Below, in pieces: positions 3,001 through 21,200 of a stretch of DNA of 64,000 nt. The translations under genes were made by a program, and so were the position numbers. Source of the DNA: a virus. The notes under the pieces are model-generated. The model saw only the letters and a list, made by a program, of their open reading frames with translations. It did no database searches and had not been told where the DNA came from. The stretch covers positions 1-64,000 of the IMG/VR virus record IMGVR_UViG_3300034060_000702. The stretch is one strand, 5' to 3'. Position 1 is the first letter of the stretch, and the number at the start of each line of letters is the position of its first letter.

Positions 3001-3288
3001 CTCTTCTTCAGTGATTATTTCATAACTAACCCCTAAAGCTTTAGATAGTTTTGTCAACCAGCGATTAACAGTTTTTTCAGTGTAGCTATATTCTTTTTCA
3101 GCATTGTCTTCTTTTAAGATTGACTCCGGAATATAATCTGCATTAAGTTTATCCAGTTTGTATCGAATAAACTCTGGTGAACCTACATCACCTGTTTCTA
3201 AATAATGTGCATGTACATCAGCCAATGTAACACCTAATTTTTGAAAGTCTTCAAGATTGATTTGATCATTTATACTACATGCTCCCAT
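1..3288 (-). CDS. Giant ejected cargo protein with N-terminal zincin (HExxH) domain; 3'-truncated by the window edge (>1096 aa)
   Basis: Missing from the ORF track because it has no stop in the window. ATG at 3288-3286 overlaps the upstream stop (TAATG). Reads MGACSINDQINLEDFQK...QSVVHEFSHPFVK...KEEVFVRAL, with HEFSH at 2875-2889; the frame is open at both ends where I checked it. Confidence 0.8.
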   Translation of the reverse strand, partial: MGACSINDQINLEDFQKLGVTLADVHAHYLETGDVGSPEFIRYKLDKLNADYIPESILKEDNAEKEYSYTEKTVNRWLTKLSKALGVSYEIITEEEAMELHNEKGKIYSNEPAFFHNGKAYFITGRLTPQSVVHEFSHPFVKMLMKDNPELFNSLYDRLLATEDGKIILDEVTKKYKNRSEDSLKEEVFVRALTASTMMTSPKEEFSSWIKEFLFNVKQALRKLIGKSIEIQNLSPMTTMRELADILSKGDKVAMDAAIYTDEEIFDYMREYTSFDHTFNTALKSKKATDVQELINNAVYAATVQLTSLEENKDTMPGLENLADLLVKEYDQGILAKIKKELGPLATSSDMIIAISKKDDAGALINHADVIAERLTTLTNNLYNIQEMLKVMNEEIPKIKSLTTREQIDTLHYYTTFIDNWNPVVKGLSFVRVNNVGIGTKNDLTDLTDSLSTLMQKAQLTLLDVKTEAVLDELWGMVEPIANKVKDKFNKEASRKSGKIIDITKVFKGQITADQDAHWLEFHNMTKDQYEKFMIMKNAGAVNNKEYKELKSLWMKGLEMTKDKLKDIISNEGVDSNYFNGLLESASFNTDATVFGLQQHIQSEIAKYEVYAKTKFENYLDAVQPYFDQVNFQNRGSVGRELGQVNKVASIVDGEIVEHEEHGFLQEFIGWQSDKVSKQFAVNQAQETFSETNSDADEIKLMDAIQKYADWKNKYMHQQYSAEYYEADKLFTKDDIGRDAKQRRETIFEIMSAINANVNLEESNRTAALNYMWDEYKLLQSFHNLDGTMKTGSDLEVSKRLKEYSEAKSKFIVFNEIPEVFQEAYNSHSKSVTDSGNPLGSDEYKKQMDLWLEQNTVVSLKNSIVDKKQKLLTERASLLETLIAANKNIDDDSEQRQLISDMVKLVTDNSNQPDGITADAEIRKKVRDAHQEIDDMKNNLYNYKGLGLTRAEVDRLKTLQNLSILGTITSQEDIERLDLLSKQLTSGSALGLDPLIIARLNAIDADLAKMSSSIPTDSFRSVVRDLVNDSPALTDVVLSYLEDTGVTLDFAWDIESEDILDFIVNGNLNDAFAASPEFKTFVEENFYEKSVYSADD

Positions 3289-4181
3289 TATCTACAAATT
3301 CTATTAAAGTTATTTACTAAATCCTTACTAACAAAGTTATTGTTTTTCCATAGCATTTCATACAAAAGTTCATTAAATACTGCCATTGCTTCAGCAAGAT
3401 CCTTTGCCATGTAATCATCTATTTCTGTTTGCGAATACACAGATCTTATTGCATTCACTTCACCCGCGCTGTATGTTCCAATCTTTTCAAATGTATTTAA
3501 CACAGGCTCATTAACCTCTAGATTATCATTAAACAAAGATGTTTGAGGACTAGCAAAGTTATTTTCCAATTCCTTAACTGCTATGATGTCTTCACTATTC
3601 CTAAAGTCAAATGATACCACAGAGGAATTATCTTGAACTAAACCACTATAACCCTTTGAAGAAAGAAACTTATAGAAGTTTAGGTTATTTTCTTTTCCTG
3701 CTATACTTTGATCATTTGGATTATATGTTAAACCCAACTTATTAAAGAATAAGTTTTGTAATACAGTGTATCCTTCTTTGTTTTGTTCTGTATCTAAAAA
3801 ATTAGCAGTAGATAAACCACCACTATTCTTATTAGATTCTTCAACAACTTTATAATGTTTTACATTGGTAGTAGTATCATAGTTTTCTGCATTATCAAGA
3901 ACTACTTTTTTTACATTGTAATCATCTTTAACCTTTTGAACTTTTACAAACAAATCTCTATTAATATCAAAAGTCCAATTACCTTTTCGAGATTTGTTTC
4001 TTTCAAACAACATCTTTCCTTGAGCTTTTACTTGATATGTTCTTTCAGCAATTTTTGTTTTGGTTTCATTGTATTCATCAAAGTCTTTTAGATTCAATAC
4101 TAAAAACTCTTCTTTATCAATGATACCATCCCTAGCCATTTCAGCTAGAGAACTATCTAATACACTACATACTGCACCCAT
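3288..4181 (-). CDS. Hypothetical protein (297 aa) in the cargo gene cluster
   Basis: ORF track; co-oriented and tightly packed between two giant genes; no recognisable motif. Confidence 0.75.
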   Translation of the reverse strand: MGAVCSVLDSSLAEMARDGIIDKEEFLVLNLKDFDEYNETKTKIAERTYQVKAQGKMLFERNKSRKGNWTFDINRDLFVKVQKVKDDYNVKKVVLDNAENYDTTTNVKHYKVVEESNKNSGGLSTANFLDTEQNKEGYTVLQNLFFNKLGLTYNPNDQSIAGKENNLNFYKFLSSKGYSGLVQDNSSVVSFDFRNSEDIIAVKELENNFASPQTSLFNDNLEVNEPVLNTFEKIGTYSAGEVNAIRSVYSQTEIDDYMAKDLAEAMAVFNELLYEMLWKNNNFVSKDLVNNFNRICR

Positions 4182-4193
4182 AATACTTACTTA

Positions 4194-7100
4194 TTAACAA
4201 CCAATTTTATCATTATCATACTTACTTTTTTCAGCACCAACTGTAATACTTTTAGGATCAATCGGAGCAGTTTTTGTTACCATTACTAATTTAGTAGTTG
4301 GTCTTGAAACCGCAACATATAATGCTTGATTTTTTGCTTTTGGTGTACCTAAATTTGTATTACCTAAAATGTTGTCAAGCATTACATAAGTATTGGTATA
4401 TGTAGAACCCTGTGCTTTATGTGCAGTAATTGCATAACCATATTGTAAATTACCAAATTCTTTTAACAAACCATAAGCCATTTGACCATCTGTTTTAAAT
4501 AAAGCAGCTACATCTTGTCGAAATTTATTTATTGATGAATTTGCAATAACAGGTATGTCAAATAAATTAACACCTTCTTCATTTATTAAATCTAAATATT
4601 CAACATCATATTTAAAAGATTGAGTTCTATTACCTTTAGCTTCAGAATAAACAGTTATATTAAAATTAACATCAACTTTTTTAGTATTACTAACAACTAT
4701 TAAATCTTCACCATTAGTAAAAACTGGAGATTCATCACCAAATGTATCATACGCCATCAATCTTTCTCCAGGCATAAACTGATTTTTAACAGCATCAAGA
4801 CCATACAAAGCATTTCTAACTTTCATATTCAAATTTAAAACACTTTGTCCACTTGGATTTTTTTCATTGTTAAATGTTATAATTTTAGCAAAATTAGGAT
4901 CATTGCTGTTTTTAACATCATCTACAAATTGATTTATAGCATTTGCTTCATTCTGTTCCCAAAGTAATTCGGAACCAGATACAGAATCTTTTGCATTAAC
5001 CATCATATCAGAAGTAATAACATTTACTTGTGGATCTTTACTTTTTACATTATCTGAAACAACAGTTCCAATTCCAATAATTGGAGATGTAGCTGCTTGT
5101 CGCATCTTTTCAGTTAGTAGGTAATGATTTGAATAACCAAATACTTTACTATCGGAACTTTGTCCAACTGGAGGAAGCTGTGCTCTATCTCCCATGTAAA
5201 TAATTTTAGCTCCTTTTTTCTTCCATTGATTGATTTCAGCAATCATATCATCTTTAAGCATAGACGATTCATCAATTATAACAAAGTCTGCTTTAAGCAT
5301 TGGAACCCATCCTAGTTTTCTTTTTTTTATATTTGGTTTAAATTCACCAGTTGCCTCATCTAATTTAATTGCTAAAGCTGCATCTAATGTTATGGTATTG
5401 ATTTTGTCTTTACTAAATTTTCTATCTCTATTTAAAGAATTATCCAACACTTTTTTTGCTTTGTGAGTAGGTCCAATTGCTAACACAGTACCTTTACTTT
5501 CTAATTCAGCAACAAGATTTTTAATAAGAGTAGTCTTACCTGTTCCTCCAGCACCTTCCAATACAAATTCAGACTCATTAGAACTAATGAAATCATACAG
5601 CTTATCAATAGCTTCACTTTGTCCTTGGTTAGCAAACACACCTGGAAATAACTCATATCTATTTACTTGAGGTTTATTACCAGAAATTGGTTCTACATTA
5701 ACAGGGGTAGGTTCAGTTCTAAATGGTTTACCATTTTGTGGATCTACATTTGGATTCTCATTGTATTTAGCTAATAGTTTGTTTTTATCTGCAGGTTTAC
5801 CTTTGTATCCAACAACATCAACACCTACACCATCTTTGATTACAATAGCATAAGGTTTACCATAGTATTGATAACTATCAGTAGTTGTTTGAGAAGTAGT
5901 TGTTTCTGATTTACTAATAACTTTAGGTGTATCGCCTGTGTTATCAATACCAATTTCAGCAAGTTTTGTATTAAGATATTCCCATATTTTTGGAGCAGTA
6001 TCTTTCATGTTAGAAATTTCACCTTTACCAAAAGGTTTTTCAGCACTAAATTTAACTCCTTTAAAATAACCTTCTCCAATAAAAGATTTTATTCTACGAA
6101 TTTCACGATCAATTTCTTTTTTAAACTCATCAAATTTTTCATCAGTCCATTGAGTTCTTTTGTCATCAACCATTGTTGTTATTGGAAATGCATTAGCCAA
6201 CCCTCTAATTACAGCTTGAGTTTTACCAGGAAATTTTTTATCTGTTCCATAAGTACTAGCATACCAACCAGTAGGTCCTACTAAATTAGGACCAGAAGTT
6301 CTAGCTGCATTATCTGTAAATAAATAAGCATACTCATTATCTTTTGTAACAGACTCTCTAGTAAATCTTTGCGATTCAGTTAAAGCTATTGCTGTTACAG
6401 GTCTGCTTACTAATTCAAATTCAATAGCATAAGGATAATTGTCAACATGGTTATCAGTTACAGATTTCACCCAACCTTCTTTTTCCCATGTAGCATCTTG
6501 ATATTCTTGTGTAAAAGGAACAACTTTAGTAATTCTAGTATAAGCTCTACCAGTTTTTTTATCAGTCATTCTTATTACCTTACCTACAAGATCTTCAATT
6601 TTAGAAAGATTATAGTCTTTCATCATTCTTTCTATATCAGTTTTAGCTCTAGTAGTTCTAGTTCTATCACCTGAAAGAATAAGTTGCATAGTTGATCTAT
6701 CTTTAAATTTAGATTGCATTTGTCTACCTCCATCTCCATCTTTAAAGTTTTGTTGAATAGGTGTTAATTCATCAGCTGCATCAAATTCATTAACACTAGT
6801 AGATGATTGAGTAGGTTGTGCAAATGTTTCTTCATATACCTCTTTAATAGCTTGTTTAGCAGCTGCTTCTTTTGCAGCACCTAAATATTCTTTTCTAGGT
6901 TTCCATTCACCAGTTTTTTTATCTTTTGTGTTATAATTTTCAATATCTCTTGAACCAACACCAGCAAAATTCTTAGTCAAAGTTGGTGTTTCTGTAACTT
7001 CAAAAGTATCTCCATTATATTTATACCAACCTTCAGTAACAATATCCCAAACATAAGTTGGTTTATTCATTTCTATACCAAGTTGTACAGCAGTATTAGT

Positions 7101-10100
7101 ACCTCCAAGAACAGCTGTTTTATCTGAAAATAGTTTAGCAACAGCAAATACAGCATCTGCATTAGCTACTTGATAATAATTTCTAACTTGTAGATTACCT
7201 TCTAAGGTATCAGGATATTTTTCTCCAAGTAATCTTTCTACTTCAGTTCTTGCAGTATCCATTTGTTCTTTAGTAAGAACTGTAGCTGTTACTTTAGCAT
7301 TTTTAAGTTTTTGAGAAAGGTTTGCATTACCTGCATCTTTATAATGCATATGTTTAGTAACTCCAAACTCTCTACCTATCATATCCCAAAAGGTATCTCC
7401 ACCATAAGCACCACCAGAATGATTAGTATAATCAGATGGATTAACACTAGTAGATAGTTGAGTAGTGGAACCTGCAGGTTTCTCAACAGCTCTTCCTACA
7501 GGATTAACATCCGGAGTATGTCTTAAAGTAATACTATATCTAATACCTGCCTGACCACTATTTTTTTCAATTCCATGTTTATATTTAATTTGGGAATCTT
7601 TACCCATTACTAATACATGTCCTTGCTTAGTAGGTATACCAACTTTCTCATTAGCATAGGGAGTGTTTGACATTCCTTCTAATCTAAATATTCTTTCAGC
7701 ACCAAGCGATAATGTAAGCACAGTTGGATTAATATTTTCTTTACCAACCAAGTTAGGTTCTGCATCAGTATGCATTCCTAAACCTTGCTCAAGACCTGTA
7801 TATCGATTAATTAAAGCAGTGTCAAAGTATCCTGGAATAACTCCCATTCTTTTTTCTAATTCTCTAACAGTTTTATCTAACCAAGATGGTAATGGTGCTG
7901 CTGCTTTTGTTATTGTAGAATATTTATATTCAATAGGACCAAAGTAAATTGATTTTGTATTTGCAAAATTTGGAATACCTTGTGCTGGATCAGCTAATAC
8001 TTTAGGAAACTCTCTATCCATGATTTCGAACAACTTGTCTGATTCAACTTTATTGAATACTTCTCCATCAAAAATTTCAGCTCCTGTTATTTCTTGAACT
8101 CTTTTAAATCCAGATAATGTTCCTGCACTAAGAAAACCTGAAGATGTAGTAAGTACTGCATTTTTTTGTTGAGGACTTGTTGCAACAGCATTAATTTGTA
8201 CAAGACTTTTTCTTGCAGTCATCAATGCTCTAGCATACATGTTGTTTAATTTATTTGAAACAGTTCCTTGCAGTAATGCTGCATCCTGTGTATTTACTAA
8301 TAAATTTTTAAAATCTTTATCTTTTTCAATAACTTTTCCAACAACATATTTATAAGCAGACTCAATTGCAACATTGTCAATTACATTTGCTCTAATAAAG
8401 TCAGACCAAGTAGCATTCGGTAAAGATTTATGTGCTTGATATTTTTCTTCTAAACCATATTTATCTGAAAGTTGTTTTGATACTAACTGGTCAATAGAAA
8501 CTTTTACAACTTCATTTTTATTTGATGAAGAAAGTAATGAGTCATCTTTAATAGAAAAAGTACTTTGTGTATTATACAATCCAGATACAGCCATTGAATC
8601 AACTTTAGACATAGCATAATACAAACCATTACCACTTAACATTGGATGTTTTTTATAACCCAATGATTCCAAATGTTCAATGATAAGTTCATTAGCACCT
8701 GGTTTCATTTCAATATTAAATGTAAGATTGTTGTCATGATTTAATCCATCTAAATGTTGTTTGTACTTTTTAAAGTATTCTTTAACAAATTTTGGATCAG
8801 TTATTTCTGAAGAAGAATTAATGTAAGCAGTAGAATAAAGACCTAAATCAGCATTGATAGCAGTTTCACCAAGTCCAGTAAAATAGTCAAACTGTCTAGT
8901 AGTATCTTCTGTTTCACCAACAGCTGAATATGGCATAATTATAGCACTATTTGCATATCTAGCCATTGCAATCTCTATCTTTCTAACACCTTCTAAATAA
9001 GATAAATCAAATTTATTTGTATATTGAATAGTATTATCAAAATAAGAATCATTCTCATAAGAGCCTCCTCTTTTATTTTGCAATTGTCTTTTACTATAGT
9101 TTTCATGATAATTAAGAGCAGTGTATAAATTAAGAACAGAATAATTTACAGCTTCACCAGATCCTATTTTATTTAAACTTTCTAATATTGAATCATATTG
9201 ATTACCGATTACATTTGAAATGTGAGCAGGATCAATAATTTCAGTTACATTAAATTGACCAGCAGTTCTAATTCCAGATTGCAACACAGCAAAGTGATCA
9301 AACTGTTCGAACAATTCTTGAACCTCTGGAATTTCACCATAAGCTTTAAGAATTTCCAATTCCTGTCTGTATATTTTTGAATAACCTGTTTCTTTAATAT
9401 TTGCTAATGAGATATTATGAGAATACTTATTATAGTTATGTCTAATGTCTTCTAAGAAATTAAATTTTCCTATTAGTTCTCCATGCTCACTTGCAACTTC
9501 TAGCAATCTTTTAGCATAAGAAAATGGACCATGCATTAATGTTTCTCTATTTCCAGAAGCAAGTAATGCTTTAGATTCTAAAGCCGCTGTTAAAATTAAA
9601 TCTTCATACTCTTCAGCAGAAATTTCTTTACCTTCAATTGTTTCTTCATTAATACCTACATCACTCAAAGCTTTTTTAGCCAAAATGTAATGCATGCTAT
9701 CTTTAGGAAGATCCATAAAATCTATTTTTCCATATTCAGCTAAGAATTTTAATGCAGCATTTTTAGAACCAAATTTATGAGGCAATGCATTAAGAACATT
9801 AAATCCAAAAGCCAACTCATTTAAGAAAGTTGGATTGTATCTTAACTCACCATCTTTGTAATCATACTTATCTACAGACTCATCTTCAACTAAAGCAATA
9901 TCATTATAAGTATTATCAGTAATTCGATTGCTTTCATTTTGATATAAGTACCAAATAAAATCTTCTTGGAATTGGTTAATGTTATCTTCAGGAAAAATAC
10001 CAGCTTTAAAAGCAATATCTGATTTTTTATCAGCAATAGCAGATAAAGCTTTATTATTTTTTAATGCAGAGAAATTAGAAAATAATTTTAAAATCAATTT

Positions 10101-13100
10101 AGAAGAAGCAAACTTACCAACAATAGTAGAATCAACTCTTTTTAAAATGTCAACAGGCAATGCTGGATTTGACTTAACTAAAGAATCTAATTTTTTTTGT
10201 TTATCTCTAACTTCATTTAACTTGCTTGATGCTTTTGTATCAAATGTTGTAGCTGTTGTTAAACTTGTTATTTGATTTGCAATATTTTCATAAGCAATAA
10301 ATTTATTTAATAAATCAAATTGAACTTCATCTGATATTGGAATAGCTTTTCCAGGTTCAGCAAAAGAATTTTTAATAGCCGCAGTATTAATTGGAGAATT
10401 ATCATTGATTGATAACTTCATAACTTTACCTAAGTTTTGTACTAAATCAACATTAGTATAAAGTTCTTTTGTTTTTGAGTCTATATCCAAACCATTAACT
10501 ACAGATTTATAAGCATCAATATCTTCATACTTAATTAAAGCATCAAAAGTATTTCTATCAAAAGTTGCATTTTGATTTAATACATGTAATGCACCTTGTT
10601 GAACTCTTTTAGCTTCTAAGTAGTTTCGAATAGCAGGTACAGATACAAAATTAACCGCATCTTCTACAGGAACACCCGCCATAAATAAATACAACAATGT
10701 TGGAGTTGCTTCTTTGTTACCTTGGATATTAAAAATCCAACCACCTTTTGCAACATCCACCCAACCATTAATCATTTGTCCTAAAATATCAGGAATGTAT
10801 TCACCAGCTTTGTTTTTTAATGCAGCTAAGTCAATTACTTTTTTTCCATTAATAATTTTAGAATTAAAACTTGGAAAGTGTAAGTTGTAATTTTTATATG
10901 AAAATGCTAAATCTTTTTCTATTTTACCTACATTTTTAGCATCTTCTTTTAGAGCAGCAATAATCTCATTATAATCTTCTAATGTCAAGATGTTTGAATC
11001 TATGTTAGTGTACATACCCATTCGAGTAAACATAGAGAAATACTTGTTTATTACAGCACCAATTCCTAATGTATCTTTACCAACAGAGTTTTCAATTTGT
11101 TTGTTTCTATTGTAAGATGGATCAAAAATCATAGAAGATGAAATCTTAGTTCTAATAGTTTCTTTATCATGAACAGATTGATATTTATTAAATGGAGAAA
11201 CATGAGATTCTAATTCTTTTGCAATTCCATCTACCAAGTTTGTATCATTTGGTCTTACTAAATCGGCATAGTTATCTTCTCTTTCAAGTCTTTCAACTAT
11301 AACATCAATAAGATTATTCTCTAAACCTTTAATCGATTGACCATCTTTTTTAATTTGCAAGTCTGCTAATTCAGATTTCATTGCTTCAAGTTCTCCAAAC
11401 AAAGCAGACTTTTGTCCTAAAGCATCATACACAGAATCTATAATTGCATTTAAAGCTGCAACTTCTTTTTCATTTTCAGCAAGTGCCTTTTTTTCTTTGG
11501 TTGTTAATTTACCTGAAGTAGTTTTAATTGCTTCTTTAAGTAGTTTTCTATTTTCTTTTATTTCAGATAAGACTTGTTTTTGCTCTAATGTATCTTGATT
11601 TGCTTCGATGTAATCAAACACTTCTTTTCTTTTATTAGAAATGTTTTCTTTTAATGTAGAGATCTTAGAGTTTAACTCATTGATGTCTTCTTTAGGAAGA
11701 GCTTTGATCTTCTTAACTTCACCATTGTATAGTCCAAGATTGGCCATCATTGTGAATAATTTATCCACATCATAATCGGCTCCAGACTTAGCAACAATTT
11801 CAGAAGGTAGAATAATAACATTACCTGCAATTTTTGGTAAGAATGAATGTATCTCCATAAATTCAACAGAGTTCATCGCTTGACCAGGTATCCTACAGGT
11901 AGTCATGATAAATAAATCCATGTTTTCTTTTTTCCAAACAGGATCAACCATCAAAGCATTCAATTTATCTAAAGTTGAATCATAATCTAATGTTTTTACT
12001 TTAGTTCCATCTTTACTTGTTTTAGTAATGTATGTAGCAATAGACTTACCATCTTTACCTTTTATGTATAAAAGCTTTTCAAAGTCACCTTGCAATGCAA
12101 TTTTAACTTGCATCGCTTTGATCTTTCCATCTTTTCTATAGTAACTTCTTAAACCATTAGTACCATACTCTAATTGCTCTTCAGTAGTAGCTTTTTTCCA
12201 TTGTGAACCTTTTTTCTCACTCATAGTAGAAGCCATCTGAATAAGACCTTCACCATTAACTTTCATCTTAGTTAATCTTTTATCAATCAAAGACACAAGC
12301 ATTTTAGATACTTGTCCTTCAGTTAATGCAAGAGAGATGTCATTTTTAAGAGCACTGTTGTTAAATAAGAAATCAATTTGAGCATCATCAATTTCACTTC
12401 TTGTCAACTCACTTCTAATTAAATTAGCAAGTTTTTCAGAACTTCTTGAGATGTCAGCTTCTTCAGTAATACCAAGTTCATTAAACAACTCTTGTTTTTT
12501 AAACTCAACTATGTCTTCTATTGTTTTTTCATACTTAACTAACCACTGATAGTCATTAGACTTTAACTTTTCAGTTTCAGACATTTCCTCCCATTTACTT
12601 TGAAAATCTTTTTTATCAAACTCTTGCAATTCAAACATTGCAGAAACATCTTTAGGAACCCCATTATCCATTAATCCAGCATACAAGATTGCTCTCATTT
12701 GAGTAGGTAATGTAATCTTACCTTTATACTCATTATGTATCTTGATTTGGTTTTTCAAATACTTAACATGAATAATGTTTGGTGTAAATTTGAAAGTAGG
12801 ATCTGTAGTAGTTTCTCTAGTTTCTTTATTGTAGTAATCATCATTAGGTGATTCTGATTCAGAATTAGATACAGATGTAAGTTTAGAACCAGATGCAAAA
12901 GTCATATAGTCAATCCCCTGCTCCATCATTTTATCATGAAGATCTTCTAACTTAGTTCCTTTAATCATGTTAGGAATTAATGGAATAAGATTGAATTTAT
13001 GAAAAGCCATACCAGGTAAACCATCAGTTTTAACTGGACCAAAATGTTGTAACTTCATTGATTCAAAGAACTCATTTACTCTAGTCTGATCAAATGCAAC

Positions 13101-16100
13101 TCCATTAACAATGTTGTTATACATTGCTTCTTTAACTGGCGACCATAAACCTTGAGATATAGAAAGCATTCTGTAGAAGTCAAAAGAAATAAATCCTTGA
13201 CCATCTGCTTCATTCATATTATTGTAAGGACCTAATGAATTTTTGATGTCTTCTGCTAACTCATCTAAGTAAATAGAATTAACTTTATGGTCATTGATAA
13301 TTGCAGTTACAACTGTACCATCATATGACCTAAATTCTTTTTCAGGTTTTATATTTCCAGACTTAACTCTTGATTGAGCATAGTTTCTACTTTTATTATT
13401 TTCAACAACATCTCCACTTTTAAATGGAAGTGTATTTAATGTTTGTAACATTGATGTGTCATGTCTAAAACCTTCACCTGTTGAAATAATACCTGCAATC
13501 CTTTTATGGAAATCTTCTTTGCTAACATCATATAATGCTGGATCACCTAAAAACATTGTAGTAAAATTCAAATAGTTTAAGAATTGATTTCTTTCAAACA
13601 TTGAAATCAATATCTCTTTAGATTCATCAACAGAAAGTTTTGTTTTAGCATTACCGCTAATCTCTGTTCGAACTCCTTCTGCTAAATAAAAAGTATCTTT
13701 TTTATTCTTTAAAGTGTTATCAGTTTTTTCTTTAAAATACTGGTTAATCTCTTTTGTAATAACAGATTTAGATTTTTCAACTTCTTTTAAAACTTCATCA
13801 AAGTTAGTTGAATTGATTTCTTTTAGTTTACCCTTAGTTTCATTTGTAAGCAAAGCATCAAAGATAAAAAACTCTTGACCTCTTGCTTTGTAATTCTTAT
13901 CTATGTTACCTGTCGCGCTTTTTAAAGTATTAATCCTAACTATTTCTGCAGCAATATATTTCTTTAAAGCAGAATACATTTTATTATTTGTATCTGCCTG
14001 TGTCTTGATTGCTTTAGCATCAGTAACATCAAATATAGGTTTAGCATTATTTAAACCAAAGTGAAATGAAGATGACTTATCAGCCATCCTTGGAGCTTCT
14101 GCTTTACCATAGTAACTTAAATAAACATCAGTAATAAACTTTGAATTTTCATCCAAAGACATATTGCTTAAACCTCTTTCAACTAATGATTCATATTCAT
14201 TTTCACCAATAAGTTTTTGAAAGTATTTAGTACCAGAAAAGTTTTCATATTCTATTGCTACATTTCCTTGCTTGGTACTTTGTTTCTTACCATTTTCATC
14301 AAACAATTCATTCAACCATGTATTTGCTTTTTTAAATGGATCAAGATTACCATCTAAGTGTTCAAAAGCATTGTCCTTAGTTAACTCTTGTAATGTTTGC
14401 GCATTATTAATACCATTGATTTGATGAGTAATAGAACTATTTAAAACCAATTCCGAAGCTGTTTCACCTTCAGCATTAGTACCCATAAATGAATTATAGT
14501 TGTTAGAGTATTTGAACTCAACTTCCTGCAATGTCTTATAAAAACCACCAAGCCCTTTTACTTTTTCATAAGTTTCATTACCCTGCTCATCAGTATTTTT
14601 AACACTGTAATCTTTAATTAAATCAGTAATACTATTGATCCTTTTATCAAAGTCTGTTGTTTTTATAGAAGAATCATTTCTTAATCTATTAATAAAATCA
14701 TCAAGCAATCCACCAGGAATTCCAGAGTCTTTATCGCCTTTAAATAATACTTTATTTACTTCAGCAGTATCAGTAAGATTAACACCAATAGCATTAAACT
14801 TTTGTGCAATACTTGCTTTTGGATTTGCTTCTAACCACTCTAATGCTTTTTTAACATTAAGATATGGACCATGAATATCTACTTCAATATTTGGACTTAA
14901 TTCAAATGCAGTATTCCAGTTATTTCTAACTTGAGATGTCGAACTTGAAACAGAACCATATTTAAGATTAATTCCAATTTCTTTACCATCATTTACTCTT
15001 TCAAACAAAAGTTGTTTAAGAGGCATATTTGATTTACTGAAAGTCTGGAAAAATTTACTCCATAATATTTGAGAACCTAAATGTATTGGGAGTTCCCCAT
15101 TTACCAAAGGCATTCTTTTAAGAACTTCTTGAATGATTGGATCTTTAGAATCTCTCAATACAGCAAACATTGTATCTGGATTTGCAGATGACATTGTTTG
15201 TTTAGCAACTATCGATAATACTTTTACTTTATTGCTTAATAGATGTACACCCAAAGCATTTGTTACCTTCTCTCCTTTTTCATTAAAATCAGGAACAGTA
15301 CTTAACAACATTAATATTTCTTTGTCCGCATATTCCTCTAAAGAAATATCTTTTCTTTCTTTAAATGGATCTGTTTCATCTCTTTCAGTATCTTCTTCTG
15401 CAATACTCTTCAACCCTTGTTGAGTAATAAATAACCCAGAAGAAATATGAGCACCAATGACACCAGTATTAGCACCAGTTTCACTAACATTTTTTTCAAT
15501 ATCTTCTAAGTTACCAAACTCTGCAATAGAAAAAGTTAATGCTTCAACTTGTTTTGCAACTTGAGCAATCTTCATTTTTTGTGCAGCATCTGGATTACTA
15601 ACCTTAGATAAAGATTCTTGAATTTTTAATTGATTTTCTTTTATCTCAATCAGTTTAAGTTTAGCATGTTTGTACAATGGTGTGATGTCATCAAGTGTAG
15701 TAATTTTCATATTACCATTCTTGATTTTTTCAGAGTATGCTTCATTTACCAATGTATTAACTGTATCTACAATTAATTTACTTTGAGCTGCATCTAACTT
15801 ACCATTCTTAGGATCACTAAATGCAGTAATAGAAGCATTCATTCTACCCCAAAACATATTAGCTTCAGGATTGTATTTAGTAAAATCAACTTTGTTATCA
15901 ACTAAGTCTTTGAAGTATTTATCAGTAAGTGTTTTTCTCTTAAAGATTTTTGTAATAGCATCAAGTAAATTCTTAAAGAATTTTTGAAGCATGTTACCTT
16001 TAGGAGAAATCTTATTTGTTGCATAAGCTCTAAACTTTTCCGCTAAGAATTCCTCTACAGCTTTATCATTCTTGAAATTCTCATTTGGGTATGATTTTTT

Positions 16101-18218
16101 AACTTCAAAGTAAAGTTTATTCTTTTGTTCTTTAGTCAATATACCTTGTGTAAAAGCATGCCATGCTTCATGGTATATCAATGTATTATTAGAACCTTTG
16201 TATAATGTTATACCACTTGTAAACCATTGTGCTAATGCATGTGGATGTTTCTTATCACTAAAATCTAAATCCAATTCACTTTTCATGTCATGAGCTTTAA
16301 ACCAACTTAGTGCAGCAGCTTCTGCTTTTTCAGTAACAGTTTCTAATTCAATTGTATTTGATGCAAGTACATCATCATCAGCATAATCATCAAACTCTTC
16401 AAATGTTGGAGGAGTTGGTTTAATATCTTCCGCAGGTGCAACTTCATCAGCAGTTTCAACCTCAACTTCTTTTTCAGCAGTTACAGGAACAGCAGTGCTA
16501 ACTGAAAAACCAATTCGAGGATGATACAATCTTAATTCATTAGCGGTACTTGTTTCAGCAAGAGTGTAACTATTATTCATAATATGTGCATTATGAGTAA
16601 TAGGTGTAAGAACTAAAGCATTACCTTCCATTCTAAAAGTATTTCCAGCTTTAATCTTAAAAGAGAAATTAGGTTTTCCTACAGTATGAAGTTTACCACT
16701 AGCTGTTCTAAATAAATCATTTTTAGATTTAGCTTCAGCAATATCAGTAACAATATTTTTCTTTTCTGTTTTTCCTGTATATTCTTTTTTCTGTACTGAT
16801 AATTTTGTAAAATGATTAGTCAATGCTTCTGCTAAACCTTCATCAAATAACTTAAATGCTTTATCAACAATTATAATTTTACCATCTGGTTTAAATTTAA
16901 TTGGTGAATCTGAAGCAACATTTACATACTTTTTAAACAAATCCATTCTTTGTTCAGGAGTCTGCACAGCATCATCAACAGTAAGTTCAGGATTAGTAAG
17001 TAATTCAATTAAAGATTTTACAATATCTGGACTTGTATCTAATGAAGATGGATAAAGAGAAACAGGAGTTGTATGTAAAGTATGACTAGTTAATGCATAA
17101 AACTGAAACAATAGTTTTCCATTTTCATTATGTTCTTCCTTTGTTATAACTTCAAATTGATTGTAATCTTTTACACTAGTTATTTTAGTTTCTTTACCTG
17201 AATCTTGATTTATGTAACCAAAATTAGAATTTTCAAGATTGACATCCAATAAGAAACCTTCTGCTTTATTTTGGTTAGCTTTCTTATTAATGTCATTTAA
17301 AATCTGTAGTTCATTTGCTAATTGCTCAAAAGCCATTCGCATAGCTTTACCAGGTTCTAAATCTTTATTGTTAAATTCAATAGCTCTTGCTAATTTTTCT
17401 TGAACTTTTCTAATTCTTAAATTAGCATCTGTAGCCTTAAATCCTTTTTGTTCATTAAAAGGTTTTTTAAAATCATATCCTTCAAATAAAGCATCTGGAT
17501 TATTTGTATATGTAGAAAATATAAAAACCTTACCTTCTTTAGATATGATTTTTCCATCTTTATCAGTCATTAAAAAAACTAATGCTTCAGGACTAGTAAC
17601 AGAATCTCCAACAAGATTTCTTTCTAATTCTAAGCCAGCACTTTCAATTAATTTTCTTGCAGCACCAAGTTTAATAGCTAATACTTTATGTTCAGCATTT
17701 GCCATAATATCAGTTAACACTTCTCTAACAAAAGCAAATGCTTCTGCTTTACTTGGATCTACTGTTCTTACCTCTCCTGTAAACTCTGGAGTTTGGTTTG
17801 TTAAAACTTCGACATGTGATGGATTGAACTTAGAAAAATCTACAAAATTTTCTTCTTCAGTTTCAATTGGATTTTCTTCAACATCAATTGTATCTACAAT
17901 TAATTTTTGATAACCTTTTATTAAATCACTAACAGCTTTTGTGCTGTTCATAGCAGTCATAGTTTTTGCTAAGTCTGCCTCAATGTTAAGACCTGGAAAA
18001 CTTCCATTTAAAGCAATAGGAAGAAACAACATATGCTGTACTACCAAATCAATATTTGATTGATTGTTAGCATCACCAGACTTCATTAAAGCAGCATTGT
18101 ACATTCTCTTGTACAACTGATCTTTTGATTGAATGGTTTTAGTGTTTATTAATTTTGCTTGAGATTTAAAAAGTTTTACAAAATCTTTTATTGACTGTTC
18201 ATTAATACATACATTCAT
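4194..18218 (-). CDS. Virion-packaged single-chain DNA-dependent RNA polymerase polyprotein (phi14:2 gp66-like), fused to zincin, AlkB, SLOG, ASCH, macro-like and SF1B helicase domains
   Basis: RNAP motifs: EADGQG, TCRIPGQ, catalytic GADYDVDK (~11760-11783), GKDTLGIGA, NGWVDVAK. Zincin HEAWH at 16158-16172. AlkB HTD...H...RYSITLR. Helicase GAGGTGKT, IIDESSM, GDRAQLPPV, TAHKAQGSTY, YVAVSR. Confidence 0.9.
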   Translation of the reverse strand: MNVCINEQSIKDFVKLFKSQAKLINTKTIQSKDQLYKRMYNAALMKSGDANNQSNIDLVVQHMLFLPIALNGSFPGLNIEADLAKTMTAMNSTKAVSDLIKGYQKLIVDTIDVEENPIETEEENFVDFSKFNPSHVEVLTNQTPEFTGEVRTVDPSKAEAFAFVREVLTDIMANAEHKVLAIKLGAARKLIESAGLELERNLVGDSVTSPEALVFLMTDKDGKIISKEGKVFIFSTYTNNPDALFEGYDFKKPFNEQKGFKATDANLRIRKVQEKLARAIEFNNKDLEPGKAMRMAFEQLANELQILNDINKKANQNKAEGFLLDVNLENSNFGYINQDSGKETKITSVKDYNQFEVITKEEHNENGKLLFQFYALTSHTLHTTPVSLYPSSLDTSPDIVKSLIELLTNPELTVDDAVQTPEQRMDLFKKYVNVASDSPIKFKPDGKIIIVDKAFKLFDEGLAEALTNHFTKLSVQKKEYTGKTEKKNIVTDIAEAKSKNDLFRTASGKLHTVGKPNFSFKIKAGNTFRMEGNALVLTPITHNAHIMNNSYTLAETSTANELRLYHPRIGFSVSTAVPVTAEKEVEVETADEVAPAEDIKPTPPTFEEFDDYADDDVLASNTIELETVTEKAEAAALSWFKAHDMKSELDLDFSDKKHPHALAQWFTSGITLYKGSNNTLIYHEAWHAFTQGILTKEQKNKLYFEVKKSYPNENFKNDKAVEEFLAEKFRAYATNKISPKGNMLQKFFKNLLDAITKIFKRKTLTDKYFKDLVDNKVDFTKYNPEANMFWGRMNASITAFSDPKNGKLDAAQSKLIVDTVNTLVNEAYSEKIKNGNMKITTLDDITPLYKHAKLKLIEIKENQLKIQESLSKVSNPDAAQKMKIAQVAKQVEALTFSIAEFGNLEDIEKNVSETGANTGVIGAHISSGLFITQQGLKSIAEEDTERDETDPFKERKDISLEEYADKEILMLLSTVPDFNEKGEKVTNALGVHLLSNKVKVLSIVAKQTMSSANPDTMFAVLRDSKDPIIQEVLKRMPLVNGELPIHLGSQILWSKFFQTFSKSNMPLKQLLFERVNDGKEIGINLKYGSVSSSTSQVRNNWNTAFELSPNIEVDIHGPYLNVKKALEWLEANPKASIAQKFNAIGVNLTDTAEVNKVLFKGDKDSGIPGGLLDDFINRLRNDSSIKTTDFDKRINSITDLIKDYSVKNTDEQGNETYEKVKGLGGFYKTLQEVEFKYSNNYNSFMGTNAEGETASELVLNSSITHQINGINNAQTLQELTKDNAFEHLDGNLDPFKKANTWLNELFDENGKKQSTKQGNVAIEYENFSGTKYFQKLIGENEYESLVERGLSNMSLDENSKFITDVYLSYYGKAEAPRMADKSSSFHFGLNNAKPIFDVTDAKAIKTQADTNNKMYSALKKYIAAEIVRINTLKSATGNIDKNYKARGQEFFIFDALLTNETKGKLKEINSTNFDEVLKEVEKSKSVITKEINQYFKEKTDNTLKNKKDTFYLAEGVRTEISGNAKTKLSVDESKEILISMFERNQFLNYLNFTTMFLGDPALYDVSKEDFHKRIAGIISTGEGFRHDTSMLQTLNTLPFKSGDVVENNKSRNYAQSRVKSGNIKPEKEFRSYDGTVVTAIINDHKVNSIYLDELAEDIKNSLGPYNNMNEADGQGFISFDFYRMLSISQGLWSPVKEAMYNNIVNGVAFDQTRVNEFFESMKLQHFGPVKTDGLPGMAFHKFNLIPLIPNMIKGTKLEDLHDKMMEQGIDYMTFASGSKLTSVSNSESESPNDDYYNKETRETTTDPTFKFTPNIIHVKYLKNQIKIHNEYKGKITLPTQMRAILYAGLMDNGVPKDVSAMFELQEFDKKDFQSKWEEMSETEKLKSNDYQWLVKYEKTIEDIVEFKKQELFNELGITEEADISRSSEKLANLIRSELTRSEIDDAQIDFLFNNSALKNDISLALTEGQVSKMLVSLIDKRLTKMKVNGEGLIQMASTMSEKKGSQWKKATTEEQLEYGTNGLRSYYRKDGKIKAMQVKIALQGDFEKLLYIKGKDGKSIATYITKTSKDGTKVKTLDYDSTLDKLNALMVDPVWKKENMDLFIMTTCRIPGQAMNSVEFMEIHSFLPKIAGNVIILPSEIVAKSGADYDVDKLFTMMANLGLYNGEVKKIKALPKEDINELNSKISTLKENISNKRKEVFDYIEANQDTLEQKQVLSEIKENRKLLKEAIKTTSGKLTTKEKKALAENEKEVAALNAIIDSVYDALGQKSALFGELEAMKSELADLQIKKDGQSIKGLENNLIDVIVERLEREDNYADLVRPNDTNLVDGIAKELESHVSPFNKYQSVHDKETIRTKISSSMIFDPSYNRNKQIENSVGKDTLGIGAVINKYFSMFTRMGMYTNIDSNILTLEDYNEIIAALKEDAKNVGKIEKDLAFSYKNYNLHFPSFNSKIINGKKVIDLAALKNKAGEYIPDILGQMINGWVDVAKGGWIFNIQGNKEATPTLLYLFMAGVPVEDAVNFVSVPAIRNYLEAKRVQQGALHVLNQNATFDRNTFDALIKYEDIDAYKSVVNGLDIDSKTKELYTNVDLVQNLGKVMKLSINDNSPINTAAIKNSFAEPGKAIPISDEVQFDLLNKFIAYENIANQITSLTTATTFDTKASSKLNEVRDKQKKLDSLVKSNPALPVDILKRVDSTIVGKFASSKLILKLFSNFSALKNNKALSAIADKKSDIAFKAGIFPEDNINQFQEDFIWYLYQNESNRITDNTYNDIALVEDESVDKYDYKDGELRYNPTFLNELAFGFNVLNALPHKFGSKNAALKFLAEYGKIDFMDLPKDSMHYILAKKALSDVGINEETIEGKEISAEEYEDLILTAALESKALLASGNRETLMHGPFSYAKRLLEVASEHGELIGKFNFLEDIRHNYNKYSHNISLANIKETGYSKIYRQELEILKAYGEIPEVQELFEQFDHFAVLQSGIRTAGQFNVTEIIDPAHISNVIGNQYDSILESLNKIGSGEAVNYSVLNLYTALNYHENYSKRQLQNKRGGSYENDSYFDNTIQYTNKFDLSYLEGVRKIEIAMARYANSAIIMPYSAVGETEDTTRQFDYFTGLGETAINADLGLYSTAYINSSSEITDPKFVKEYFKKYKQHLDGLNHDNNLTFNIEMKPGANELIIEHLESLGYKKHPMLSGNGLYYAMSKVDSMAVSGLYNTQSTFSIKDDSLLSSSNKNEVVKVSIDQLVSKQLSDKYGLEEKYQAHKSLPNATWSDFIRANVIDNVAIESAYKYVVGKVIEKDKDFKNLLVNTQDAALLQGTVSNKLNNMYARALMTARKSLVQINAVATSPQQKNAVLTTSSGFLSAGTLSGFKRVQEITGAEIFDGEVFNKVESDKLFEIMDREFPKVLADPAQGIPNFANTKSIYFGPIEYKYSTITKAAAPLPSWLDKTVRELEKRMGVIPGYFDTALINRYTGLEQGLGMHTDAEPNLVGKENINPTVLTLSLGAERIFRLEGMSNTPYANEKVGIPTKQGHVLVMGKDSQIKYKHGIEKNSGQAGIRYSITLRHTPDVNPVGRAVEKPAGSTTQLSTSVNPSDYTNHSGGAYGGDTFWDMIGREFGVTKHMHYKDAGNANLSQKLKNAKVTATVLTKEQMDTARTEVERLLGEKYPDTLEGNLQVRNYYQVANADAVFAVAKLFSDKTAVLGGTNTAVQLGIEMNKPTYVWDIVTEGWYKYNGDTFEVTETPTLTKNFAGVGSRDIENYNTKDKKTGEWKPRKEYLGAAKEAAAKQAIKEVYEETFAQPTQSSTSVNEFDAADELTPIQQNFKDGDGGRQMQSKFKDRSTMQLILSGDRTRTTRAKTDIERMMKDYNLSKIEDLVGKVIRMTDKKTGRAYTRITKVVPFTQEYQDATWEKEGWVKSVTDNHVDNYPYAIEFELVSRPVTAIALTESQRFTRESVTKDNEYAYLFTDNAARTSGPNLVGPTGWYASTYGTDKKFPGKTQAVIRGLANAFPITTMVDDKRTQWTDEKFDEFKKEIDREIRRIKSFIGEGYFKGVKFSAEKPFGKGEISNMKDTAPKIWEYLNTKLAEIGIDNTGDTPKVISKSETTTSQTTTDSYQYYGKPYAIVIKDGVGVDVVGYKGKPADKNKLLAKYNENPNVDPQNGKPFRTEPTPVNVEPISGNKPQVNRYELFPGVFANQGQSEAIDKLYDFISSNESEFVLEGAGGTGKTTLIKNLVAELESKGTVLAIGPTHKAKKVLDNSLNRDRKFSKDKINTITLDAALAIKLDEATGEFKPNIKKRKLGWVPMLKADFVIIDESSMLKDDMIAEINQWKKKGAKIIYMGDRAQLPPVGQSSDSKVFGYSNHYLLTEKMRQAATSPIIGIGTVVSDNVKSKDPQVNVITSDMMVNAKDSVSGSELLWEQNEANAINQFVDDVKNSNDPNFAKIITFNNEKNPSGQSVLNLNMKVRNALYGLDAVKNQFMPGERLMAYDTFGDESPVFTNGEDLIVVSNTKKVDVNFNITVYSEAKGNRTQSFKYDVEYLDLINEEGVNLFDIPVIANSSINKFRQDVAALFKTDGQMAYGLLKEFGNLQYGYAITAHKAQGSTYTNTYVMLDNILGNTNLGTPKAKNQALYVAVSRPTTKLVMVTKTAPIDPKSITVGAEKSKYDNDKIGC
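6789..6814. repeat. 26-bp direct repeat, copy 1 (encodes linker TQSSTSVN)
   Basis: attaacactagtagatgattgagtag; 24/26 identical to 7440-7465. Confidence 0.85.
7440..7465. repeat. 26-bp direct repeat, copy 2 (encodes linker TQLSTSVN)
   Basis: attaacactagtagatagttgagtag; 24/26 identical to 6789-6814. Confidence 0.85.
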
Positions 18219-21200
18219 TATTTACAAGCTTTAAAGTGTTCTAAAATATCTTCATCGGTTACTTCCTCATCTGCAATTGCAAATGATTGAGTTGTAAATT
18301 TAGACAAAATACTTGACAAGTCATCAAGATTATTTTGATCTAAAGCACTAACAATTTCATCTTGTTTCAAGTTGAAATCATTGATAACTTTTTTTACATC
18401 GGTATTGAATTGTTTAGAATTCAGCTCAACTTTATTTTCAATTATGCTGTTAAAATCAACAACTTCAATCGAACCTATTTTTGAGCTTGGTGAAATTGTA
18501 TTCACTTTTGAAACTTTTACAATTCTACCATCAGTAAGTAAAAGTTTATCCCCTACAGATAATGTACTAAAATCTTTTTGATTAGCCAAATCTATCTTAG
18601 CTTGATTGAATATATTTTGTATGAATGGTAAATGAATATCATTAATCTCATTCAATGTAACACCTAACTTAGTAGTAGCATACTTAACTAATTCTTCATA
18701 CACATCTACTAAACCTGATTCAGTTTTTATTCCAGTAAATCTATTTTTTAAAAAATCAGTTATTCCAGATTGTACTTGATTTTCAACTTTAAGTTTATTC
18801 AAAGCTTTTTGTTCTGCTACATATTGTGCTTTAGTAATTTCATTCTTTACTATATGCATCTTAACTGCTTTAGATAATCGCTTGATGTCAGTAGGAGTAT
18901 ATCCTAATTCTTTCAGTTTAGAATCTTGTGTAGCAAAAATTGGTTCATTGTTATCTACTACATCTGCAGCTGCATTTAGGATTTCTTCTTCAGTTGGTTC
19001 TTTAGGAAGAGTGGATTTAGCTGTAGTATCATAATCAGTTATAGCTACATTGCCTAAAAATCTATCACCTGAATACACTTGAATTACATTATCTAGATCT
19101 TTTTTACCTGGTCTTTTTAACACAGGAACCAATTTTAATGTAACAGGTTTACCAAAGTCTTCTGCTTTAATCGCTGTATTATGATCAAAAATAATAACTT
19201 TTTCACCATCTACTTCTATTACAAAACCAGTAGAACTACTTGGAGTTTTACCAGTCAACTTTGCTTTTATTGATTTACCACTAGTAAGTTTATCAACTAT
19301 CTTTTCATGCATAGATTGATTTCTTCCTACAGGTTGTTCAGCAGGTTTAATATCTTCTAAAGCAATACTTAAAACACCATCTGTAAAGTATCCAATATTT
19401 AAACTAGATGGTAGTTGTCTTTTTGCAACATCATCTATAAAGTTTTCTTCTAAGTAGTTTTCTAGTTTATCTTGTAAACTTTTACCTGGAGCACTTTCAA
19501 GAGTAGCTCTATCAATACTTCCTATAAATAAATCTAAATATCCTCTATGAGGAGACTTACCTTCAGCTAAATCAAATAATAGTTGCTTTAATTGTTCTTT
19601 ATTAACAATTCCTGTAGTAGAACTTACTCCAGCAGGCATTTTCAAACTATCATTAAAAATGTTTTTAGCATTTCCTTCTGAAGTTACATGAGTTATAAAT
19701 AATAAATTATCAGGTAAATTATTTATTATTCTTTCTATATCAGCTTTAGTATCTGTAGTAGTAGGGTTATCTCCTACACCACTATCTACTTTTTTTTCAG
19801 TTTCAGTTTTTTCTTGAACAACTGGAGTATTTTTTTTAATAATACTTTCAGCAATAGGAATTAAAGCATCAACCATTTCCTTAGTTGTTGTAGGATTCTT
19901 ATAAGAAGTTCTATTTTCAGAAAGTTGTTTTGCTTTTTTAATCAAAGGTTCAGCAACTTCAGAAGCAGACATTCCATCTGGTAATGCAATTACAATAGCT
20001 GTATATACAGATGGTCTATTAGAACCAGTTGAATCTGATTTTTGAATTGGTATTTTAACATCTACATATCTAACACCATTGCTATTAAAAGTTTCATCAT
20101 AAGTATAGTTGTGTAATTTTTTTTGATTTCTTATATCCACAGTGGACATATCATTTGTTTTATTATCAGAACTATATTTAATACCAAATCCACCTTGTCC
20201 ATCATAAGCTCTCCATTCAAAAACAGAGTTATCTTGTTTTGTATTTTTAACTCTATCCAAAAACATTTCAAAAGCTCTTTTAGATATTTCTTCTTTAGTT
20301 GGAGCTTTTGCTTTTCTAAATAATTTTTTATTTGCTGTTGCTTCTTTTTCTAATTCTTCTTTTGCAAGTTTTTCTAAAAAAGCTTTTGGAGAATGTATTC
20401 CAGTTCTAAAACTATCTTGGAAATATAATTTTTTTAATGCTTCCTCATCAGTTCTTAAAAACTCTTCTGCTTGAGATGTAGTTTCTTGTGATTGATTAAC
20501 AGGTTCAACTGTTTCTACAGGTTTAGTTTGTGCACCAGAGAACAATGAGTCTTCTGCAGTTTTAAGATATGCATCAATGTTTTTAAATGTAGTACTTTCA
20601 TACTTATTGAATTTAGGATTCTCACCTTTCCAATTTGTTTTAACAAACCAACCATCTTTTGCAAAACTAAATAATGGTGTCCATTCTCCTTTTGAAGCAG
20701 CACCTGTACCAAGTCCAGTAGATTTATATACTAAAAATCTTTTACCATCAGCAAATACATCTACAATTAATCTTCCAGCAACTTGAGTTCGAAAACTACC
20801 TATTGTCCATTCTGAATTATTTGCATCTAAACTTTGACCAAACTCATAAAGATCTTGAATTTCTTTTGAAATAGCCAGTTTATTACCATCATATCCAGAA
20901 ATTTCTTGATTAACCCATTCATCAAATATATCAGGTCTATCAGATTGATCATCAACTACTACAACATCAGTATTAGCACCTATTGATTTTGGTTGCTTTG
21001 GATTTTCTTTTTGATTTGTTTCACTACTAACTGTATCGCTTGTTCCCTCTCCTGTGGTGTCAATAGGGATTGTTTCTTCACTAGTTTCTTCATCGGATTC
21101 AATTATTATATTTTCATCTATTAATTCATCTATTACTTTTTCTTCAAGAGTTACTTCAGGACTTGTTAAAACTTCATCTGTAAGAGCTTGTTCAACTTGT

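Follow-up and report, generated by a model that had tools for sequence, protein, structure and literature searches.

A giant protein of a lake crAss-like phage couples a predicted virion RNA polymerase to an array of accessory domains apparently exchanged at short in-frame linkers

A polymerase-type backbone followed by an accessory array

The first 64,000 nucleotides (hereafter the window) of the IMG/VR virus record IMGVR_UViG_3300034060_000702 carry on the minus strand a single giant open reading frame (ORF), P0001, with 4,674 codons and no internal stop under the standard code used by this phage (translation table 11). Its product is probably carried as cargo in the virion of a crAss-like phage: an RNA polymerase (RNAP) backbone, predicted to be packaged and ejected, is extended in frame by an accessory array whose modules are exchanged at short linkers. 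The array makes up the C-terminal 28% of the ORF and runs, after the RNAP backbone, in the order AlkB, SLOG, ASCH, DUF7831, a small unit and a helicase. Sequence comparison with relatives shows cassette exchange at the linkers, two of which are copies of a 21-nt joint.

The backbone was assigned by homology. A tblastn search with residues 1500-2700 as the query matched residues 1537-2161 to g066, the catalytic RNAP subunit of phage phi14:2, at 4e-14, and matched the crAss001 RNAP at 2e-8; all 81 of 81 matches to the region were in crAss-like phages. Together with the catalytic motif DYDVD, these matches place the backbone, as judged from its sequence, in the crAss-type two-barrel virion RNAP family of phi14:2 gp66, and the N-terminal RNAP core claimed in a preliminary description of this DNA is borne out. 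The gp66 structure 6VR4 was not reached when the whole protein was compared with PDB sequences by phmmer, and a PHROGs scan left unmatched both the RNAP backbone and five of the six giant ORFs beside P0001. The zincin-like region ahead of the RNAP was matched by tblastn only in crAss-like phages and is colinear with the giant protein of cr130_1. A zincin has been assigned in gp65 of phi14:2 (bioRxiv 10.1101/2020.03.07.982082); since Pfam gives no match for the region in P0001, we infer rather than assert that it is a peptidase.

Given that the parent record is a single metagenomic contig, the fusion might be an assembly chimera or a read-through artefact, with C-terminal domains drawn from other genes or genomes. 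We rejected this explanation as extremely improbable: the frame is open for 4,674 codons, the composition is even (GC 0.29-0.32 along the ORF), a protein cluster from a 14.5-kb contig is identical across its 3,610 residues, and the relatives P0003 and P0004 have the same tail, from AlkB to the small unit and helicase. Moreover, the same kind of fusion occurs in deposited complete crAss genomes.

Modules are shuffled on a constant backbone

A survey of C-terminal architectures, which the preliminary description had proposed, found shuffled subsets of the modules in at least 253 metagenomic giant proteins. They are 2,570-8,180 residues long and have stretches of the C-terminal region (query residues 3380-4674) in common with P0001. 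The Pfam sets of these proteins also include NADAR, ArdC-N and DUF1848, and the SLOG-ASCH-DUF7831 stretch matches 1,433 cluster representatives. When segments were mapped on the retrieved proteins, the zincin-RNAP backbone was constant, while SLOG, ASCH, DUF7831, AlkB and the helicase came in many orders, some ahead of the zincin region and some behind the RNAP.

The preliminary description had not recognised the architecture as a described one. This holds for the exact six-module order, which was found only in the window's own record, but not for such fusions as a kind, which already exist in the 253 or more giant proteins and in three deposited crAss genomes. In cr118_1, zincin, RNAP and a C-terminal SF1 helicase lie in one coding sequence (CDS) of 4,946 aa annotated as 'exonuclease V'; in cr50_1, RNAP and a C-terminal helicase share one CDS (the annotations of these two being 'exonuclease V' or 'DNA helicase'); and in cr130_1, RNAP, SLOG (54% identical) and DUF7831 (38% identical) are joined in one CDS of 5,801 aa annotated as 'DprA-like'. 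Each of these CDSs is named for one domain, differs from the window protein in lacking the six-module order, and is undiscussed as a fusion. Within the cr130_1 CDS (NC_055901.1, L002:6778-24183), TAG occurs in frame 74 times and the terminal stop is TAA; TAG is thus read as sense there, unlike in the window phage. Literature searched for crAss together with AlkB, NADAR, ASCH, DprA, polyvalent or DUF7831 held no description of the fusions in the texts covered, the figures of Yutin 2021 and all of Yutin 2018 lying outside that search. By sequence comparison, this kind of fusion is thus not unique and is present, undiscussed, in published crAss genomes.

The closest relatives illustrate how the array changes. 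P0003 carries AlkB, SLOG, cassette X, the small unit and the helicase after its RNAP backbone, with X replacing ASCH and DUF7831, and P0004, which is without SLOG, ASCH and DUF7831, carries AlkB, X, the small unit and the helicase. The roughly 140 residues of cassette X form an unrelated domain with the motif FVFGSNPEGxHGxGAA...SYALPT, which stands at the ASCH/DUF7831 place in these closest relatives and has no Pfam match. The backbone, AlkB and helicase of P0003 are 82-98% identical to those of the window protein, while its SLOG is only 67% identical. The same 67% was seen for SLOG in proteins whose backbones are 26-59% identical. Because the SLOG identity of P0003 equals that of such distant proteins, the modules have separate histories.

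A 21-nt joint lies at the borders of exchanged modules

The stretches of T, S and P between the domains had been read as linkers. They do separate domains, but they are not mere spacers, since two of them are a 21-nt joint conserved as DNA and associated with recombination breakpoints. The consensus of the joint is ACTCAAyyATCTACTAGTGTT, read in frame as ACT CAA (CTA or TCA) TCT ACT AGT GTT, with the palindrome ACTAGT inside it. Two copies occur in the window, versus 0.10 expected, and they bracket the SLOG domain. The 18 specified bases were found exactly in 70 IMG/VR contigs (L005-L074), at domain borders and in 68 of them in frame within long ORFs, and 17 contigs carry 2-5 copies spaced 396-975 nt, about the length of a domain. 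In the ORFs with joints, the codons TCT ACT AGT were used in 99 of 99 peptide motifs, including 15 copies outside the search pattern, while the background usage of TCT, ACT and AGT is 0.41, 0.53 and 0.30.

We then compared the flanks of 91 distinct joint sites. Identity is 95% within the 21-nt core and 34-35%, the random level, in the 33-45 nt to each side. For 48 pairs of joints, at least 90% identity across 150 nt on one side was combined with at most 50% on the other, the identity breaking no more than about 12 nt away from the joint; just 10 pairs were similar on both sides. The window's own two joints follow the one-sided pattern less sharply (79-81% vs 31-37%). Moreover, the peptide motif occurs 45 times among homologues chosen by protein similarity, about 38 times no more than nine residues from a domain border, and across 14 loci picked only for their SLOG protein, four of four QPSTSV copies have the exact joint codons. 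In our reading, the exact joint would be the active crossover point and the degenerate linkers its fossils. Crossover may be driven by homology or by an enzyme, and homology-driven exchange is equally possible.

It has been proposed by Drobysheva et al. that gp65, the zincin-bearing protein that is fused to RNAP in some phages, may process the RNAP, and that fused gp65-gp66-gp67 polyproteins are cleaved (bioRxiv 10.1101/2020.03.07.982082). The giant chain might likewise be cut by its zincin-like peptidase or by another protease, in the capsid or after entry, with T-Q-P/S-S-T-S-V as the cleavage site. The zincin-type HExxH within the same chain and the closeness of the motif to domain borders would fit such processing, which is also compatible with delivery. 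Yet the joint would then be a protein-level signal, and a peptide signal leaves both the codons fixed in 99 of 99 copies and the identity breaks at the joint unexplained; in addition, most domain borders are without the motif. A cleavage role is thus insufficient because it cannot explain fixed synonymous codons. We consider the polyprotein explanation unlikely and disfavour the joint as a peptide signal alone.

Besides SLOG, DUF7831 and cassette X, ten further kinds of joint-bounded module were scanned, of which only NADAR (L050:8026-8451) has a credible Pfam match. NADAR is thereby one of the joint-bounded cassettes in relatives. The commonest joint-bounded kind (13 copies) and a P-loop-like kind (GHPGLGKT) are undescribed.

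The domains of the accessory array

The AlkB-type module is supported by a match of residues 3429-3566 to Pfam 2OG-FeII_Oxy_2 (PF13532; E 3.5e-17, 63.7 bits versus a cut-off of 31.2). Its ligands H-T-D, H and R-YSITL-R (HxD...H...RxxxxxR) all align to the ligands of human ALKBH3, so that the iron and 2-oxoglutarate sites are complete. At the other end of the array, the helicase matches phrog_325 (Dda-like) at 7e-73 across both RecA-like halves, the Pfam families AAA_30, AAA_19, PIF1 and UvrD_C_2, and RecD, RecD2 and Dda in the PDB. Its motifs are complete (Walker A GGTGKTT, DESS, GDRAQLPPV, HKAQGST and VAVSRP), which makes it a complete SF1B helicase of the Dda/RecD/Pif1 type with a predicted 5'-3' polarity. 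Both modules lie where the preliminary description had put an AlkB domain and a complete SF1B helicase.

That description had also listed a small unknown domain before the helicase. The unit is indeed present there, has no Pfam match even at E 10, and is located directly upstream of the helicase in at least 15 relatives, always so in relatives. Because it stands immediately before the helicase in these 15 or more proteins and travels with it, we read it as a leader of the helicase module, not as an independent unit.

SLOG, ASCH and DUF7831 were folded together from an alignment of colinear homologues, with a mean predicted local distance difference test (pLDDT) score of 82.9. The SLOG domain matches phrog_768 (DprA-like) at 3.5e-8 and carries the sequence motifs HSGGAYGGD and GGTNTAVQ, with no Pfam match even at E 10. 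Its model (pLDDT 96-98) is closest to PDB 3imk (Z 12.7, rmsd 3.9, 150 of 158 residues), followed by DprA, LOG and YpsA structures at Z 5-7 and by MCP structures. Membership of the SLOG superfamily (SMF/DprA-LOG) is thus confirmed by the fold of the model, Rossmann-like with a glycine-rich loop behind strand 1, at the place where it had been proposed. For the next domain, the predicted structure matches E. coli YqfB, an ac4C amidohydrolase (9kyf; Z 8.6, rmsd 2.6, 93 of 102 residues), as well as PH0355 (2z0t; Z 7.5), 3iuw, 3s9x, 5guq and 1t62, with a Foldseek probability of 0.99. The modelled beta-barrel fold thereby confirms the earlier assignment of an ASCH (PUA-like) domain to this place.

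The third domain had been called macro-like. It was correctly placed, and its membership of the DUF7831 family (PF25176) is secure by sequence, with 36.4 bits versus a cut-off of 27 for the isolated domain and a pLDDT of 90-96 within the large model. Its macro identity is a different matter. About 15 of the top 41 VIA-align rows for the isolated model are macro domains, with weak scores (Z 3.2-4.6, rmsd about 4.3); the matches comprise DarG, TARG1, MACROD1, MACROD2 and viral macro domains, and DarG reaches Z 4.7 with the large model. A Foldseek search against the PDB returned nothing at E<=0.001, Pfam gave no macro match, the ESM Atlas matches are DUF7831 clusters only, and the BFVD matches are DUF7831 proteins only, from crAss phages, giant viruses and two other phages. 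A macro-like character is therefore weakly suggested by the models, and we did not adopt DUF7831 as a macro domain. Stand-alone small DUF7831 proteins were seen in BFVD in the giant viruses Hyperionvirus, Yasminevirus and Tupanvirus and in Caulobacter and Rhizobium phages, and in metagenomic fragments DUF7831 is fused with NADAR or with a GGQTGxD-type SLOG.

Delivery and proposed function

The early genes of phi14:2 are still transcribed by gp66 when rifampicin is present, which requires this polymerase to come in with the DNA (bioRxiv 10.1101/2020.03.07.982082). In crAss001, gp47, gp49 and gp50 were found in virions by mass spectrometry, stored in the capsid in an estimated six or so copies each (PMC10172136). 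As these are homologues of the backbone, we infer that the window protein is delivered into the host: the backbone would be packed in the capsid, be pushed into the cell ahead of or with the DNA, and transcribe the early genes. The accessory modules would most likely be delivered alongside the polymerase and act ahead of all phage gene expression.

It was reported that single-stranded or denatured DNA is a good template for gp66 and duplex DNA a poor one, and that QDE-1, its eukaryotic relative, needs a helicase and RPA (bioRxiv 10.1101/2020.03.07.982082). A Dda/RecD-type helicase in cis is thus a plausible template supplier. Together with its small leader, it might open the incoming duplex in the 5'-3' direction and give single-stranded (ss) DNA template to the polymerase. 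AlkB enzymes of the ALKBH3 type act on single-stranded DNA and RNA and, in human cells, use the helicase ASCC3, at whose exit the TRIP4 ASCH domain binds nucleic acid (PMC10076317). The ALKBH3-like AlkB module may remove lesions of the 1-methyladenine/3-methylcytosine type from ssDNA or nascent RNA, and ASCH may bind nucleic acid or strip N4-acetyl groups from cytidine. It has been predicted that virions deliver SLOG, macro and NADAR domains and that these viral domains process defence signals derived from ADP-ribose (PMC9503650). SLOG and DUF7831 could accordingly bind or degrade NAD/ADP-ribose-derived defence signals or adducts. By sequence comparison, the array of P0001 is one state of a fast-changing cassette system: through recombination at short in-frame linkers, phages acquire modules, drop them and swap them with one another, and the 21-nt joint appears to be the active form of the linker.

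The modules might instead act late, in the producing cell, in repair or unwinding before packaging or in replication, fused to the backbone for co-expression only and removed before packaging or never ejected. The gene does lie in a late structural operon, and Dda-type helicases and AlkB proteins have ordinary roles in replication and repair. Three observations speak against late action and make it, in our judgement, quite improbable. The modules are in frame with a packaged cargo protein in hundreds of lineages and at either end of it; other phages are predicted to deliver SLOG, NADAR and macro domains in their virions (PMC9503650); and a cysteine lies within the last six residues in 206 of 242 relatives, whichever module is last. 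The retention of this cysteine suggests that the mature protein still has its true C-terminus, where the cysteine may be a conserved terminal tag or a cross-link. It contrasts with an overall cysteine frequency of 0.12%. The window protein has three cysteines only, at residue 4 (18207-18209), at residue 2108 and at the last residue, 4674 (4194-4199), and the neighbouring cargo ORFs at 3288-4181 and 18218-25327 end in ...RICR and ...KACK.

Beyond a cargo protein with exchangeable modules, a bolder reading can be put forward, to which we give somewhat less than an even chance. The joint would be a dedicated recombination site for in-frame module exchange on an injected polymerase, the modules it moves would mostly belong to undescribed families of unexplored counter-defence or early-takeover enzymes, and helicase, AlkB and ASCH would form a template-preparing unit for a polymerase dependent on single-stranded DNA.

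A number of points weigh against delivery of an exchangeable enzyme array as proposed here. With respect to the joint, the loci used for the codon and breakpoint analyses were selected by the joint DNA pattern itself; this bias spares only the 15 non-pattern copies found there and the four copies in the protein-chosen sample. In the 14 loci chosen by SLOG, most borders are degenerate TQP-type linkers, most linkers in the window's lineage are degenerate as well, with the exact joint at two of five, and P0003 and P0004 are without the exact joint at the corresponding borders. With respect to the modules, the checks of catalytic residues covered AlkB and the helicase only, the SLOG domain may be a sensor rather than an enzyme, and ASCH has no Pfam match even at E 10 and is recognised by no sequence model. 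Finally, the full chain has a mass of about 520 kDa, which would have to be packaged whole or after a cut, and the single contig that forms the parent record has a CheckV completeness of 69%.

Comparison with known systems

The window protein resembles the polyvalent proteins of Iyer et al. 2017 (PMC5512222), in which conflict and repair domains are joined in one huge polypeptide encoded beside virion genes. Such proteins typically include a zincin peptidase and a helicase, and their entry into the host together with the DNA has been predicted. Polyvalent proteins hold 2-15 unrelated domains, and the window ORF has at least eight recognisable units after the portal, capsid and tail genes, in the domain order that the preliminary description had given when it invoked this concept. 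Unlike in that study, which describes no such joint, modules are swapped here at an in-frame site conserved as DNA, and their carrier is a predicted two-barrel virion RNAP of the crAss type; the words crAss, AlkB, SLOG and ASCH are absent from Iyer et al. 2017 (PMC5512222).

With phi14:2 gp66 and the crAss transcription block (bioRxiv 10.1101/2020.03.07.982082; Yutin 2021, PMC7886860), the window protein shares the RNAP homology (4e-14), the DxDxD motif and the position at the end of the structural module, and a fusion to the zincin-bearing neighbour was noted there for 'some phages'. However, gp66 has 2,180 residues and, as far as it is described in the parts of these sources that we cover, no enzyme train. 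The texts of both papers, figures aside, mention 'multidomain' giant proteins without listing AlkB, SLOG, ASCH, DUF7831 or helicase modules. In human cells, ALKBH3-ASCC3 and the TRIP4 ASCH domain likewise bring together an ssDNA/RNA dealkylase, a strand-separating helicase and an ASCH domain (PMC10076317). This is an analogy only; the human helicase is Ski2-like, not SF1B, and TRIP4 and ALKBH3 bind ASCC3 mutually exclusively (PMC10076317).

The cassettes and their joint also have counterparts at the DNA level. In integron attC cassettes and shufflons, short conserved DNA sites border exchangeable units. Unlike in these systems, the units in the window are protein domains in one frame, and the site itself is translated (T-Q-x-S-T-S-V). 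Domain mosaicism of phage proteins likewise shows short conserved border sequences and sharp breaks of similarity (PMC10684548). On sequence grounds, the window protein is best described as a polyvalent-type virion protein built on a crAss RNAP, with a cassette-and-joint system that is absent from the literature found.

The crAss-like phages are among the most abundant viruses of guts and waters. A helicase in cis offers a direct and testable hypothesis of how their injected polymerase starts transcription on duplex DNA. The accessory train, if true, would widen the list of ready-made proteins that phages deliver before gene expression, at a stage decisive for escaping defences that act through ADP-ribose/NAD signals, nucleic-acid modification or alkylation. 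The fixed joint provides a sequence handle to harvest modules from metagenomes and a natural design for in-frame domain exchange; if it is truly a dedicated recombination site, it would be a domain-level counterpart of integron cassettes.

Coordinates and genome context

The features of the giant ORF, of cassette X and of the joint-bounded modules are collected in Table 1, in which residue r of P0001 corresponds to window position 18218-3(r-1).

Table 1. Positions of P0001 and its domains and joints in the window, and of cassettes in relatives
Feature	Residues	Position	Strand	Basis or remark
Giant ORF P0001	4,674 aa	4194..18218	minus	zincin-like region, predicted two-barrel virion RNAP backbone, C-terminal cassette array
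Zincin-like region (putative peptidase)	about 600-860; HEAWH at 683-687	15639..16421	minus	counterpart of phi14:2 gp65-type peptidase
crAss-type RNA polymerase region	about 1537-2700	10119..13610	minus	homology to phi14:2 g066 and DYDVD
Catalytic motif DYDVD	2148-2152	11763-11777	minus	aligns with DFDID of cr130_1
AlkB-type Fe(II)/2-oxoglutarate dioxygenase, closest to ALKBH3	3380-3572	7503..8081	minus	Pfam PF13532, phrog_21963
Joint copy 1, ACTCAACTATCTACTAGTGTT (T-Q-L-S-T-S-V)		7443..7463	minus	AlkB/SLOG border
SLOG domain, YpsA/MoCo-carrier-like type	3595-3800 (about 3588-3800)	6819..7436	minus	phrog_768 and fold
Joint copy 2, ACTCAATCATCTACTAGTGTT (T-Q-S-S-T-S-V)		6792..6812	minus	SLOG/ASCH border
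ASCH/PUA-like domain	3812-3940 (about 3817-3937)	6399..6785	minus	fold match
DUF7831 domain	3950-4090 (Pfam 3950-4083)	5949..6371	minus	PF25176
Small beta-hairpin and helix unit	4113-4166	5721..5882	minus	low-confidence model, pLDDT about 60-74
SF1B Dda/RecD-type helicase	4196-4662	4233..5633	minus	phrog_325, Pfam, PDB matches, motifs
Cassette X in P0003	about 1880-2015
Cassette X in P0004	about 3575-3715
Cassette X in L017		L017:1468-1926
Joint-bounded modules in relatives		L013:7470-7901, L017:541-1926, L009:8994-9485, L054:5434-5883, L051:552-1076, L059:114-581, L064:604-1095

The parent IMG/VR record has 82,460 bp, and the long ORFs of the window are all on the minus strand. Their order is portal (60418-63156), major capsid protein (57364-58980), tail fibres and virion structural proteins, then the block of giant ORFs, so that P0001 is located at the end of the structural module. 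A megablast search of the region against deposited phages gave no match. The nearest deposited relatives of the portal are a Leptolyngbya phage, an epsilon crAss-like phage and Cellulophaga phages. Because the portal is only 22-32% identical to them, the source is classified as an environmental, distant crAss-like phage, uncultured and from a lake.

Base 18218 is both the start of the giant ORF and the last base in the range of a 2,369-aa ORF (18218-25327), and at base 3288 the range of a 297-aa ORF (3288-4181) ends and that of the next ORF begins. Such one-base sharing between ORFs suggests translational coupling along the cargo gene block.

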